From positions 324,260,001 to 324,324,000 of the forward strand of contig OZ024740.1 of the NCBI GenBank assembly GCA_964016885.1: 64,000 nucleotides of DNA. The letters run 5' to 3'. Positions 7,962-26,272 of this stretch are shown one piece after another. Under the pieces are notes generated by a model that had not been told where the DNA came from, made no database searches, and saw nothing but the letters and a program-made list of their open reading frames with translations. The stretch's first letter is position 1; the number at the start of each line of letters is the position of its first letter. The position numbers were made by a program, and so were the translations under genes. This stretch comes from Eledone cirrhosa (lineage: Eukaryota).

Positions 7962-8842
7962 TAGAATTCACAAGAATCAAAGCTATGTTCAAAACATTTA
8001 TTCACTTACAATTGTTTCATCCAAACCTAGTCTTGGGTTCTTCGGAGCATTTTTCAATGTTTGTACACATAATTGACCTTCTTTCCAACGCAAGAGACAT
8101 ACAGATACATATATATATATTGATGTACAGTGGAGTGACATATATTATACTATATTATTTCTGTATAGCAATTCAAATTCAAAATCAAATCAAAATTAAA
8201 ATTAAAATTAAAACAAAATTAAAACAAAATTAAAATACATTCGGCAGTTAACACAGATAATACAAGAGGATAGTTTGTTAGTCAGATGTATAGAGTCAGA
8301 TGTTTGTTAGTCAGATGCAAGAGGATAGTTTGTTAGTTAGTGTATGCGTTAGTTACACGTGGGGCATGCAAGTGTGTCCTATTTATATATGATTATTGTG
8401 TGGCAGCGTGTTACATGTAATACAAGCATTTTAATATTTTAATTTTGTTTTAATTTTAATTTTGATTTGATTTTGAATTTGAATTGCTATACAGAAATAA
8501 TATAGTATAATATATGTCACTCCACTGTACATCAATATATATATATGTATCTGTATGTCTCTTGCGTTGGAAAGGAGGTCAATTATGTGTACAAACATTG
8601 AAAAATGCTCCGAAGAATCCAAGCCTAGGTTTGGATGAAACAATTGTAAGTGAATAAATGTTTTGAACATAGCTTTGATTCTTGTGAATTCTATATATCT
8701 GGTCTGTACAACAACTGATGTTATTACATTGAGCTATTTATCTTACTGGTAATAAGGTAGTAATAAATTACTGACCTTCACTGTTTAGGGTTTAAAATAT
8801 ACATAACTATAAAAAGTTTTAGTATATACATAATCCTTAATA
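7962..8842. mobile_element. Non-coding Penelope-like fold-back element, family B
   Basis: ~260-bp inverted arms (7962-8230 / 8432-8697), each with an HHR; homologous to the ends and 3' UTR of the PLE at 23234-26272; flanked by (TA)n. Confidence 0.85.
8606..8652 (+). ncRNA. Hammerhead motif with CCGAAGA core (mirror copy 8003-8049, minus strand)
   Basis: TGCT-CCGAAGA-ATCCAAGC.TAGGTTTGGAT-GAAA-CAATTG-TA-AGTG. Confidence 0.75.
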
Positions 8843-9004
8843 TTATATATATATATATATATATATATATATATATATATATATATATATATATATATAG
8901 TTGCGTATAATGGTAGCTATGGTGCTTCCATAGGCGGTATGCCAAAATTAGCACTCGATATTCAGTAGAGTAGAGTGATAAAATTTAACGCCGAACGAAC
9001 TACT

Positions 9005-9095
9005 CGTGTCTGAAAGAACCTGCAGCCGTAGAATCAGCCAGATCCATACAGGAACCATGTCTCGAGCTACCTGCCGGCGAAACAATTGTAACACG
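9005..9095 (+). ncRNA. Hammerhead-like motif with long stem II inside a TA-flanked insert (8900-9145)
   Basis: CGTGT-CTGAAAGA-[~60 nt]-GAAA-CAATTG-TA-ACACG; perfect 5-bp stem I and palindromic stem III; one extra A in the core. Confidence 0.6.
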
Positions 9096-9317
9096 CAATA
9101 AATTAAGTCCAGATGCATCACTGATTTTTCGTTTTCTTTATACTACATATATATATATATATATATATATTACGGGGTCGATAAAATAAAGTACCAGTAA
9201 TGTACTGGTTAATTGCTGGCCTTGTGCCAAAAGTAGAAACAATTATATATATATATATATATATATATATATATATATATATATATATATATATATATAT
9301 ATATATATATATATATA

Positions 9318-9510
9318 ACGAAGGAAGTGTGGTAAGGAACCAGATGGAACATAACGCACCAGAGTACTCAATACTCAGGGTAGTAGAGTGGGTAATAGGA
9401 AAAAGTTTAACCCCGACGGCAGAGCTCAAGCCGTTTCGACGGCTATTTCTGAGTCCAGAAATAGCCGTCGTAACGGCTTGAGCTCTGTCGTCGAGGTTAA
9501 ACTTTTTCCT
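9318..9510 (-). mobile_element. Fold-back mini-element family C
   Basis: Near-identical to 7001-7193; TA-flanked. Confidence 0.8.
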
Positions 9511-9699
9511 ACACATATATATATATATATACACACACACAGTGTGTATGTGTGTAGATGCATGTGTGTATCTATCCGTGTATATATGTATATCTGAATG
9601 TGTGTGTGTATTTGTGTGTGTGCTAATAATAGCGACACGCTTCGCTAGATAAAAAGTATCACTCCAGCTTGAACAACTTGTAGAGCTGACTACACGTAC

Positions 9700-22718: not shown

Positions 22719-23009
22719 CTAATAATGCCTGTCTGTCTCTCTGTCAGTCTGTACATCTGCCCGTTCGACATTCCATCTCTTCGTTCGTTCGTCTGTCTAT
22801 CGATCAGTCTATTTATTTATTTATGAATTAATTTATTAAAGATTTTGTCTATTTCGTACAAAACGTCGGTCACGCTGGAGAGAGAGAGAGAGAGAGAGAG
22901 AGAGAGAGAGAGAGAGAGAGAGAGAGAGAGAGAGAGAGAGAGAGAGAGAGAGAGAGAGAGAGAGAGAGAACAATGGTGGTGGGGATGGCGCGATAGCACC
23001 GACTGCAAA

Positions 23010-23140
23010 AATTGTGTTTGTGTGAATAAACATGTATATGCTGGAAACTACCCATTGAGTGCTCACTCTGTAGGTTCACCAGAGTGAGCACTCGATGCCT
23101 AGTTTCCAGTATATATATGTATACTCACACAAACACAATT
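23010..23140. repeat. Hairpin next to (TA)n
   Basis: CTGGAAACTA..GAGTGCTCACTCTG / CAGAGTGAGCACTC..TAGTTTCCAG. Confidence 0.75.
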
Positions 23141-23233
23141 TATATATATATATATAATGTCATGTTGATCTTTGTATATATATATATATATATATATATA
23201 TATATATATATATATATATATATATATATATAT

Positions 23234-26200
23234 AAGTTATATGAATCAAAGTTCTGTTCAAATCATTTATATGCTTACAATTGTTTCCTCCAAACCGAGG
23301 TTTGGATTCTTCGGAGCAATTTATTAATGAATGATCACATATATGACCTCCTTTTCAACCCAAGAGACATACAGAAACATATGCATATATTGTTGCTTTG
23401 GTGGGTCGACATCCATTATAACATTTAGCGTGGCAGTATACATTTAAAGATTACAGTCATATCAAAAGAGGATAAAATTAAAATTAAAGTTAAAATACAA
23501 CATGAAATTAATGCGATAGGATAGTCAGAAGCAGCCAGTGTGTGCAACAGGTACACGTGTGGCAAGCACGTGAGTCCTATTTATATAATATTATAGTGCG
23601 GCAGGGTGTTACATGTAATACAAGCACTTCAAGCGTGTAATCAAGTGTATTAAGGGGGTTGTACTGGTAATGTATCTTTTATATGAATGTTATAGAAGCT
23701 TGTGTGTAGAGAAATATTATAAATATTAAAAATATTAGAAATGTGTAGCAAAGCGATATGGTTTTCGTGTACAACACCATTTTCACAATCCGGAGAGCGT
23801 ATCTAGATTATATGCCCCTCACATAATCCACGACGATTCAATATTGGACGTTTGATGATTCTGTTAGAGTATCATATTTTGTTGGTCTTTAGTCCAATTT
23901 ATATAGCAGGTTGTTTTAGTTGCGAGAATTAACATCGTATTATTTTCCGGAAGTGTGTGTGTGACTAAGGGGAGTTAATGCGTGAGGGGAGGTAACTCGC
24001 TGATTTCTATAACTAAATATTATCCTAATGTACATTAAATGGTGTCTCAAAAGAGTCCCTATCTTATATGGTTATAAACAGTTTCTAAAAATTTAAAGTG
24101 TCCTATCTATAATTACAGTGTAGTCTATCAAGAAGTATTAAAGGTGTTCATATTAGGGTGAATATCCTCCATTATAGAGTGCCACAATTGAATATTTCAC
24201 ACGAAGAGCCAGATCTCTAAATCAATGATCATTGTAATTGTAGTCTACTCGTAGAGCCTGGCAAGGTTTTAATAGAATCACTTCTATATATAATAATTCC
24301 TGGTAAGCTCTGTGTCAGTGCATGTCAGATTAGATGTCAAAGTTAACTATCACTAGGGTAGACCAGAGGTCAATCCTCACTTACCATGTCACTAATTCGA
24401 CCATCAATTCATACATATATGTACAACTCATACGCCGCTTGCATATCATTCACTGCACTCAGCATAAAGGTTATATAGCTCATCAATGTTAATAAATTAA
24501 TTAGTCTTCCACTTATCCAACGATGGCACTCCATCCACAGAACACCAACAGTACAATCAATTCAATGTTTAAATTTTACATTAATTATATAGTGGTGTAA
24601 TGTAGTTCAAGCAATTGAAGGCAGTCACACCGAAAGTAGATGTACAAGGGGGTATTTCTACTGTAAAGGGTTCTAGAGGGATGTCACTGTTTGTATTATA
24701 TTGGATCAATGAGTGTGGGGATGTGGTATAAGGTGTGCCCTTGGGGTTTGATGCTATAGGTGGTGACGGGTTCAAGTCTGACATTGCTATATATTGGGTT
24801 TAAAGTTTTGGAAGGAATGTCGGAAGCGGTGCTGGCAAGACACGAACACATCAGATTTTTTGTTAAGTAGGTTATGGTTAGAGAAGATAATAGTATGGGT
24901 CTCTAGTAGACAGAGGTTACAAAATTTATTAGGTGGTTTGTACGAAGTCGCGCTACCTATCACTTCCCATTTAAGTGTGTAAGATTTATTTTTAGTTTTT
25001 AGATAGTGTATGTAGCTAGATAGTGAGGTGGAGTTGGCTAGACTGTGTTTTTTGAACGAATGGATGTGCGAATTATATCTGGTTTTGAAGCAGTTAGAAG
25101 TGGAGCCTACATAGGTTTCTGAAGAGTTGCTAGTTGTGACGGTGCATGAGTATATGATATCCTTGATTAATATTTTTTATCTAAAGGGCAGGTTCTATTT
25201 GCTCTACAGTTACAATTATTCTGGGTGTTAGTCTGCTGGTTAATATGTTGTGTAGAAGTCCGGGTGGTAGCTATAGGATTTTGGATATAGGGGTTGTCGT
25301 CCCCAGTGTTATTGCTTATACTAGTGCTATTACTACTATTACTACCGTTATTAGGGTTACTTGCTATAAAGTTATTTTGAAGGTTTACCCCCTGTGGCGC
25401 TTTAGTTTGTTGGAAGTAAGAATTAATTTTTCTTTTATTGCTACTAGCTATGTGGTATGCTATGTTAGGCGTCGTAGAGTAGGAGATTTTAATAGTGTTT
25501 TTGTTTAAAAGGTTATGGTACTTGTGTCCAGGAGGGAAGTTTTTATCTAGTAGTGAGAAGAAAGCCCTAGGTATGTTGGTAGAGACGTTTAGGTTGAAAG
25601 GAGGGTTGAAAAATGTATTATTTCTTCTTCTATTTTTGTTTGTTATGTCTGGTGTGTTGTTTCCTCTTAAGGTACTATGGTAGTTTCTGTGGTGTGGGTT
25701 ACTTTTGATGGCATCCTCCGTTTTAGTGTGTGTGTGGTTGCTATTCTTATTACTAAGTTTCCTCATGGACATATTGTGCGAGATAATGTTGTAGCTATGT
25801 GTTTTCGTAGGTAGGAACTCAATCTCTATATTATGGCCAGATCTAGCTAATGCTTGATTATAATATTGCGAGTTTTTGCTAAATATGTTTGCGTCATAGG
25901 ATAGATTAGAGATTCTATTGGATACCCCCTTAGGTGATATCCAATAGAATATGCATATGTTTCTGTATGTCTCTTGGGTTGAAAAGGAGGTCATATATGT
26001 GATCATTCATTAATAAATTGCTCCGAAGAATCCAAACCTCGGTTTGGAGGAAACAATTGTAAGCATATAAATGATTTGAACAGAACTTTGATTCATATAA
26101 CTTATATATAACTGTTCTGTAAAACAACTGATGTTATTACATTGAGCTATTTATCTTACTGGTAACAAGGTAGTAATATATTACTGCCTATCACTATTTA

Positions 26201-26272
26201 GGGTTTGAAAAAATATATATAACTACAAAAGGTTTTTGTATATGCATAACCATAAATAGTATCCTTAATACT
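23234..26272 (-). mobile_element. 5'-truncated Penelope-like retroelement with inverted pseudo-LTR, family B
   Basis: Inverted repeats 23234-23388 / 25947-26105, each with an HHR (23272-23318 -, 26019-26065 +); internal RT-end/GIY-YIG ORF; ~1.5-kb 3' UTR; (TA)n on both sides. Confidence 0.9.
24787..25940 (-). pseudogene. Penelope-like RT C-terminus, linker and GIY-YIG endonuclease (frameshifted near 25170)
   Basis: Y.QAL..SGH, FFNPPF..NV.TNI...F..LLDKNFP..H.YH.LLNKNTIKISYS, CNCR....CPLD, then after the shift DIIYSCTV...TYVGST...FKTRYNSH..SF...STSLS.YI..LK....LKWEVI...CNLCLLE...LLNK...CQHR; stop at 24787-24789. Confidence 0.9.

Follow-up and report, generated by a model that had tools for sequence, protein, structure and literature searches.

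The window, by which I mean the whole stretch of 64,000 nucleotides analysed here, contains insertions of Penelope-like retrotransposons. Wherever both ends of such an insertion were mapped, one lies at a position T1 and the other at a position T2, each directly before a conserved hairpin. These insertions are likely products of twin target-primed reverse transcription with a sense RNA as template, a reading to which I give a probability of roughly three in four.

Identity of the elements

Families A, B and C represent the ends of Penelope-like retrotransposons that are autonomous and carry Hydra-clade motifs. Full open reading frames (784-830 aa overall; 829-830 aa in family B and 784 aa in family C, both with YRDD and a GIY-YIG-type motif) join a reverse transcriptase (RT) to a GIY-YIG endonuclease at the C terminus in a single frame, as in EN+ Penelope-like elements, and the family A sequence likewise continues into an RT frame. 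The C-terminal endonuclease excludes Naiad/Chlamys, in which it is N-terminal and the hammerhead is missing. Among 116 aligned proteins, DK[TS] was present in 115, CxCx4-6C in 113 and R[WY][KR] in 106; the conserved columns include C783xxC786, E789, N802 and C811xH813 and, judged by eye, no CCHH. This is the Hydra-clade set (RWK-type, DKT, CxCx5C, CxxC and CxH, without CCHH), and insertion into (TA)n, another trait of that clade, was also found. A piece of the reading frame in the window matched Pfam PF01541 (GIY-YIG) at E 8e-4, below the curated cut-off; the full-length protein had no Pfam match and searches of solved structures gave no significant match. Among its Atlas neighbours, GIY-YIG occurs on 31-50% of members and RVT_1 on 18%.

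Monomers in the families studied measure 3.5-4.7 kb, tails are 57-168 nt long, and very young intact families exist (copies 99.5-100% identical). Partial-tandem pLTRs, an inverted 5'-truncated copy and a one-sided tail were seen at loci L179, L177, L145 and L240, the last with a tandem array. RNA evidence comes from one run, at a share of 0.06; contigs from two other runs are short and none spans the junction. The preliminary description of this DNA had not recognised the elements as Penelope-like.

Hammerheads in the window were called by motif pattern, and their cleavage is putative; Rfam at gathering scores gave no match within the window, and a relative, L384, falls short of the gathering score with its match to the type I hammerhead (E 0.0013). 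The core is canonical in family A only, those of B, C and F being non-canonical. Family B has a putative type I hammerhead-like motif at 26023..26061 (+; CCGAAGA core, palindromic stem III) and a second copy at 23276-23314 (-), and family F has two hammerhead-like motifs with a UUGAAAA core (20233-20262 and 20136-20165). Of the ribozyme, the window's family C fold-backs keep just the 3' half; its 5' core was lost at the junction.

Insertions in the window

End positions (+n) are counted from the hammerhead cleavage site. The family B insertion at 23235..26271 is a 5'-truncated Penelope-like element with head-to-head arms and (TA)n on both sides. Its T1-ended arm (23235-25933, element sense on the - strand) carries the remnant of a broken reading frame, namely the GIY-YIG endonuclease part (24787..25176, -; PF01541), which has 150 genome matches at 91-100% identity, and the thumb and linker part with its CxCx5C motif (25167..25933, -), which ends at the inversion junction. 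The T2-ended arm spans 25949-26271 (+). The two arms are 100% identical over 162 nt, and the junction (25911..25950) holds a short fold-back insert, an inverted copy of ~14 nt of the body start. The T1 alignment word, TATATATA at 26103..26110 (+), is where the other arm stops (23234), and hairpin 1 lies immediately 3' of T1 at 26114..26147 (+; GTTC-stem-TT-GAGC, with one G.U pair). In the shorter family B fold-back at 7963..8843, too, the T1 arm (7963-8428) extends further upstream than the T2 arm (8428-8843). Positions 8843 and 26271, the long ends, are T2 (+198 to +211); 7962 and 23234, where the preliminary description saw a stop at an internal TATATA, are T1 (+41 to +44), ~157-168 nt before T2. 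Its label of "short arm" does not hold, the T1 arm being the longer in both copies (at 23234 it measures 2.7 kb, the T2 arm 323 nt).

Family C is represented by four fold-backs: 7002..7193 and 9318..9514, with T2 on the left and T1 on the right (hairpin 1 at 7050-7073 and 9366-9389, both -), and 15381..15557, of a different subfamily, and 15700..15890, with T1 on the left and T2 on the right (hairpin 1 at 15486-15509 and 15818-15841). The long end is at +96, and the stop described shortly after GUC in all four measured 16-18 nt. Family A has fold-backs at 19156..19606 (T2 to the left of T1, with hairpin 1 at 19219-19238, -) and, beyond the given range, at 57344..57732 (T1 to the left of T2, with hairpin 1 at 57646-57665). 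Its long end is at ~+145 and its T1 ends (13600, 14182, 19606 and 57344) are at +49 to +55. Two of these T1 ends belong to other layouts: 13336..13600 is no fold-back but consists of non-overlapping arms (T2 arm 13336-13422, which ends short of T1, and T1 arm 13419-13600), and 13976..14182 (+) is a T1-ended arm with no T2 arm mapped. The fold-back of family F, the "20-kb element", covers 19993..20335, has a tail of ~68 nt and ends between TTCTT and TATA, as do other copies; only a degenerate hairpin follows its T1. A pattern search past T2 of family F gave 41 matches, and 0/15 of those retrieved continued into a parent. Re-mapping the window copies of all four families placed every end where the preliminary description had put it.

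Two ends and their pairing

Ends are binary in families A, B and C, the first of the checks that had been proposed. The retrieved loci yielded 129 arms of family B (61 T1, 57 T2, 6 tandem read-through and 5 other), 258 of family C (130, 118, 9 and 1) and 108 of family A (55, 41, 3 and 9), T2 ends being over-represented in these counts through tail-based searching. Every insertion with both ends mapped has one T1 and one T2 (76/76) and like ends occur in 0/76. This holds for 36/36 in family B (19 T1-inverted, 17 T2-inverted) and 40/40 in family C (24 and 16), and short arms of 3-13 nt (L110, L151, L163, L168, L171 and L140), inspected by eye, again have the type complementary to the other end. 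Copies with no visible inverted arm are common (35/78 in B, 13/60 in C). In tandem copies T2 continues into a second hairpin and then the start of the reading frame. One terminal and one internal priming site had been proposed; both are internal to the tandem RNA, and T2 is not the RNA end. I have not met this end rule in print, although the head-to-head layout of inverted pLTR plus tail has itself been described.

Target duplications accompany family B (6/36, 11-16 nt; null 17/1260) and young family C (3/39, 15-16 nt; null 0/1482); older family C shows no excess (1/40 vs 14/1560). The second check, junction microhomology, gave at least 3 nt in 12/42 (null 5%), with inserts in 18. The arms of one insertion have 258 recurrent variants in common against 23 private ones. 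The overlap between arms reaches 3 kb, non-overlapping arms being in the minority, so either one RNA was copied twice or an arm is partly DNA-templated. Stutter occurs at T1 of family B (10/35, for the most part (CT)n runs, which could be due to slippage), is weak at its T2 (7/76 vs 10/243) and was not found at family A or C ends. The terminal 5-12 nt are repeated at some ends (L107, L143, L148, L149, L055 and L306). A fixed master for family C, a fold-back with a flipping loop, was considered and rejected because junctions are copy-specific and non-inverted parents exist.

Could one priming event suffice? The first cDNA would fold back or prime itself, on an antisense template in the model of PMC3846280, and endonuclease resolution (a term of PMC8557442) would make the second end. 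In its favour, near-symmetric junctions are in excess (8/47 within 20 nt, where permutation gives 0.7), but the excess is equally compatible with a shared RT stop. The variants common to both arms, the fold-back insert at the window junction and the short hairpin caps that lack a T end (L158, L215, L228 and L258) also suit it. Yet single priming predicts nested arms, and in 26/76 insertions (16 B, 10 C; no tandem unit involved) the tail-less T1 arm extends further upstream than does its T2 partner, which bears the tail; a single cDNA folding back is unable to account for these copies. Nor does the T2 arm ever reach T1 in 5 family B copies, where it is shorter than the tail, or at 13336 in the window, and the G.U pairs described below favour a sense-strand structure. 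I therefore consider single priming unlikely: fold-back is probably a contributor to junction closure, but it cannot be the source of both ends.

A hairpin at both ends

Each end lies 6-9 nt 5' of a hairpin of the form RCTC-stem-2 nt bulge-GAGY, and since T1 and T2 each directly precede one, tail length is roughly the inter-hairpin spacing. On the sense strand the hairpin is restricted to T1 and T2 in 4/5 full monomers (L179, L140, L145 and young C); in the fifth, L168, it passes at T1 only (shuffle background 0.11 per kb). Among de novo fold-back clusters it follows the short end in 13/30, one of which duplicates C (shuffles 2.9%, reverse complement 2/30). Distant relatives in metagenomes, which serve as outgroups, have two copies at 23, one at 7 and none at 5 of 35 loci, against a background in their reading frames of 0.056 per kb, and 12/14 of their informative pLTR ends fall, by hand count, within ~6 nt of a hairpin start. 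Upper-stem Watson-Crick pairs number 54/57, 37/54 and 28/36 (shuffled means 32, 16 and 9.7; 0/5000), with relatives taken as they stand and kinship uncorrected. In stem pairs 2-3, G.U is present and A.C absent, which points to a structure in the sense strand. The strict stem test failed for hairpin 2 of family A and hairpin 1 of family F, and the motif is absent from families D, E and I. A hairpin motif marking both ends is likewise something I have not met in print.

RNA and sense DNA are indistinguishable from sequence, and the hairpins might instead act in a multimeric cDNA intermediate whose sense DNA is single-stranded, with the endonuclease cutting just 5' of them to make T1 and T2 and these ends then being joined to the target. 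At either end the hairpin is excluded from the copied part, so that it would act on a precursor, and tandem arrays such as L240 do occur. However, two head-to-head precursors would have to be cut once at T1 and once at T2 every time; the repeats of terminal nucleotides at some ends resemble restarted synthesis, and in PMC11167929 the tail ends of a Poseidon element are RT start sites. This explanation is, to my mind, a shade less probable still than single priming.

The preliminary description had let the TA word alone set the internal stop, with nicked (TA)n annealing to words of the RNA rich in TA. Where the continuation is known, which is so for six ends of A, B and C, all of them do start with a TA phase of 2-8 nt, and TAT or ATA lies within 12 nt upstream of 43/57 outgroup hairpins, a figure without a control. 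But the phase after most ends is merely 2-3 nt, which is all that is on offer at T2 in B and C, and the family B monomers (L179, L140 and L145) each contain 9-12 further TA words of at least 6 nt that are unused as ends, as is a 9-nt word within the family B tail. What the ends share is the duplicated hairpin, and the sufficiency of TA words seems improbable. Short copies do resemble hairpin MITEs in TA sites, but DNA transposons bearing terminal inverted repeats, or fold-backs created by misassembly, can be dismissed as highly improbable: ends are asymmetric and fixed and never alike, junctions vary with no fixed internal sequence, the arms are 3' ends continuous with RT frames, and older arms have diverged between unique flanks with duplications.

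Proposed mechanism

Twin priming from both target strands, as first suggested for this DNA, is thus well supported by the binary ends, their invariable pairing, arms that are not copies of one another, microhomology and the 11-16 nt duplications; randomly placed short-arm ends and symmetric TIRs, the patterns named as contrary to it, are absent. Weighing on the other side are the long arm overlaps, the near-symmetric junctions, the many copies with no inverted arm, older family C with its lack of extra duplications, the limited stutter and the hairpins that fail the strict test or are missing. I infer the following course. The template would be an uncleaved tandem or read-through transcript reading hammerhead, T1, hairpin 1, T2, hairpin 2 and start codon. 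A dimer of the RT-endonuclease would sit on both hairpins, one to each subunit, and nick the two (TA)n strands ~11-16 nt apart; each 3' end would pair with a UA word of 2-6 nt lying 6-9 nt 5' of its own hairpin and prime a cDNA. Both cDNAs would end at variable points, frequently RNA stem-loops, and be joined head-to-head through microhomology or short templated inserts, one of them sometimes folding back on itself beforehand. The stronger proposition, that Hydra-type Penelope elements use programmed twin priming as their normal route, with the duplicated hairpin (GCTC-stem-YH-GAGCACT) docking the dimer subunits and fixing both starts, I hold to be slightly better than an even bet.

Significance

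The origin of the inverted repeats and one-sided tails of Penelope-like elements (PLEs) is named as an open question in PMC3846280 and PMC8557442. The pairing rule and the conserved, covarying hairpin make it directly testable with a minimal RNA, and the hairpin provides a defined RNA element for telomerase's closest mobile relatives. There is also a caution for such genomes: short "MITEs" flanked by TA, in their thousands, are retrotransposon ends. If programmed twin priming is true, the PLE "tail" and the inverted pLTR would come down to how far apart two docking sites lie and how they are used, and the rule may reach other PLE clades with different motifs.

Comparison with known systems

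In the LINE-1 twin priming of Ostertag and Kazazian (2001), both target strands reportedly prime and the cDNAs, joined by microhomology, give an inversion; the second site is said to be variable, set by chance complementarity, with arms that barely overlap. In the present families the second site is an encoded, fixed one and the shared stretch of the arms reaches 3 kb; priming of the L1 type was rejected on both counts.

The Penelope of Adineta vaga (PMC3846280) likewise has head-to-head arms, a tail at one end and junction palindromes, with target duplications of 8-10 bp. That layout was explained by antisense self-priming, whereas arm lengths and end pairing in the present families speak for two sense-strand primings. 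Non-LTR retrozymes (bioRxiv 10.64898/2026.07.22.740005) are also short hammerhead-bearing derivatives of PLE pLTRs, but they are tandem direct repeats, unlike the head-to-head truncation products with copy-specific junctions described here.

To judge from the available part of PMC8557442, the C-terminal EN+ PLEs of the Hydra clade share with these families RW(K/R), DKT, the CxCx5C linker, CxxC and CxH around conserved E and N with no CCHH, a hammerhead (putative in the families here) and (TA)n targets. They differ in size, "generally under 3 kb", in PLE tails quoted at 30-40 nt, both exceeded here, and in their hammerhead cores, from which the non-canonical cores of B, C and F depart; that part gives neither an end rule nor a hairpin for the clade.

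The Poseidon protein PAc, according to the available part of PMC11167929, cuts and extends both strands in vitro and was modelled as a dimer, with two RT start sites bounding the tail. It thus resembles the twin-priming model in its two internal starts on either side of the tail, its uncleaved RNA template and its modelled dimer. Unlike those of the present families, its starts lie inside the ORF at an AC-rich stem-loop with no homology to the target, and initiation of this kind counts against an explanation by UA-word pairing; the same part describes no assignment of sites to strands, no head-to-head derivation and no duplicated motif. Lastly, the docking hairpin with its short alignment region, as envisaged under programmed twin priming, may be likened to the template boundary of telomerase.

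Autonomous copies and their layout

The family B element at 23235-26271 carries a broken ORF on the minus strand that ends in a GIY-YIG domain, as read from the sequence and from a domain search. This domain gave 150 scored matches out of 59,331 candidates in the 3.0-Gb animal genome assembly; 120 regions were prepared and 80 fetched, two of which hold intact frames of 829-830 aa. One of these loci, L179, shows the whole layout in order: (TA)n, inverted arm, pLTR (the terminal repeat unit), ORF, 3' UTR, pLTR and (TA)n. Family C represents the terminal part of another autonomous family, whose frame is 784 aa and whose monomer is 3531 nt, and continuation of family A also reaches an RT ORF. 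The family C sample comprises 60 regions out of 150 matches, mostly of the youngest subfamily, 10 of which were picked because the endonuclease is present in both arms. Locus L240 (G000:C1:437201932-437213184) contains at least four tandem 3531-nt units with intact 784-aa frames. The many near-identical family C sequences suggest recent activity.

The core of the hammerhead-like motif reads CCGAAGA in family B and UUGA(G/A)AA in family C (L240) and family F (window 20233-20262), the latter consistent with the hammerhead variant in which a U3-A8 pair replaces C3-G8.

The window also contains long GGT/ACC-rich minisatellite arrays (35272-53412 and 54667-56460, the first broken by a 200-N gap at 42101-42300), a SINE-like repeat of 190 nt in about 15 copies (154-424, 22420-22726, 26771-27205, 33145-34920 and 54455-62700) and, at about 59990-61440, a decayed frame resembling an RT.

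Unlike ends wherever both could be mapped

The fold-backs claimed in the preliminary description, and their ends, were confirmed, with some corrections, by self-comparison and by reading the window sequence, and in the fetched loci the arms do stop at two discrete positions only, T1 and T2, the T2-ended arm carrying the tail that lies between them. Wherever both ends could be mapped, an insertion had one T1 and one T2 end (36/36 in family B and 40/40 in family C); free choice at each end would leave half of insertions like-ended. These counts derive from 78 B loci, after two duplicates of L121 were dropped, and 60 C loci, the remainder either lacking an inverted arm (35 B, 13 C) or having an end that is disrupted or cut (7 B, 7 C). 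In both families the inverted arm can be of either type. In 16 copies of B and 10 of C the T1 arm extends further upstream, without a tandem unit inside, and 5 B copies have a T2 arm that falls short of the tail length; in all of these, neither arm can have been copied from the other, and two starts are needed.

A hairpin motif beside the proposed start sites

The internal end had been attributed to a TA word, an explanation that fails because many longer TA words are not used as ends. Sequence beyond each end, read from tandem copies, continues in TA phase for 2-8 nt in families A, B and C, and a hairpin of RCTC, variable stem-loop, 2-nt bulge and GAGY begins 6-9 nt from each end. Scanning whole monomers on the sense strand placed it at T1 and T2 only in L179, L140, L145 and young C; L168 passed at T1 only, and the second hairpin of family A keeps its sequence and fails the upper-stem test. 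When 1.67 Mb of the fetched DNA was searched de novo, 13/30 fold-back clusters, one of them duplicating C, carried the motif after their short end. No hairpin that passes the test is present in families D, E, I and F, the last having a degenerate version.

A TA-flanked fold-back of a different family (28072-29613) has the hairpin after its short end (29544-29579) and a SINE copy in both arms. More asymmetric TA-flanked fold-backs, of families D, E, I, G and H, lie at 3665-3860, 7579-7655, 19729-19977, 57756-57957, 23009-23141 and 26294-26700; those tested lack the RCTC/GAGY hairpin, and they possibly represent other PLE clades using a different start signal.

Among 77 metagenome loci of distant relatives, 41 include the ORF start and 35 have at least 135 nt upstream of it. 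In these 35, GCTC..YHGAGCAC occurs between hammerhead and start codon twice in 23, once in 7 and not at all in 5. Of 29 repeated-pLTR matches, 15 were set aside (contig ends, read-throughs, spurious); in 12 of the 14 kept, all except L324 and L341, the pLTR ends within about 6 nt of the hairpin start. The upper stem covaries, by counts that ignore relatedness, and its second and third positions contain G.U pairs and zero A.C, which indicates the sense strand. Rfam scans of two relatives returned no family for the hairpin. One distant relative, L337, ends in (ATTT)n near 2609 and carries the word ATATTTTT ahead of its hairpin, which hints at an alignment word that follows the target.

Junctions, flanks and a model

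Junction microhomology exceeds chance in both families (at least 3 nt in 12/42 of C, against a null of 5%; at least 2 nt in 20/41 of B, against a null of 18-23%), and short inserts, some templated nearby, occur at 18 C and 15 B junctions. Breakpoints concentrate at predicted RNA stem-loops: short C copies break at stem II of the hammerhead, and 6/43 of family B at a predicted hairpin that lies 114-125 nt upstream of the putative cleavage site. Three young C loci (L214, L241, L253) have their junction or start at the putative cleavage site itself. Source variants common to both arms number 258 vs 23 private, so both arms come from one source, though conversion between arms could have raised the number shared. 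Near-symmetric junctions are in excess (8/47 vs 0.7 expected), which fits either fold-back closure or two RTs halting at the same RNA barrier.

Flanks are mostly pure TA and hence uninformative for target duplications; interrupted flanks reveal duplications of 11-16 nt in 6/36 B and 3/39 young C copies, with no excess in older family C. Two loci, L155 and L126, show an apparent duplication around a family B copy lodged in a family A hammerhead, and a B body fused to a family C piece. At L306 (near 1500) and the termini of L148, L149, L107, L143 and L055, the first 5-12 nt copied appear two or three times beside (TA)n, a pattern that looks like restarted, telomerase-style synthesis. In eight loci (L117, L118, L121, L123, L130, L131, L145, L173) a family B T1 end in CTCT context is followed by a (CT)n run and then (TA)n; such elements may seed compound microsatellites.

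Most likely, an RT-endonuclease dimer docked on the two hairpins would perform twin target-primed reverse transcription, the model I favour; the dimer, its binding and the priming are what I infer. The obligate unlike ends suggest that one RNA would present both sites at initiation, in which case long arm overlaps would require strand displacement, an RNA of tandem units, or one arm being completed by fold-back.

Comparison with known elements

No paper in the literature searched states a T1+T2 rule, describes PLEs as twin-primed or reports this hairpin, and older papers on PLE structure and hammerheads, outside that search, may mention parts. The pairing rule and the duplicated hairpin appear to be novel; with them, how PLE tails and inversions arise becomes a testable question. 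The observation is real, and the elements belong to a class already known in outline. The closest named homologue is from Argonauta (38%); together with the repeats it makes a cephalopod source likely. The protein motifs, taken alone, match the Hydra clade as section 11 of PMC8557442 defines it.
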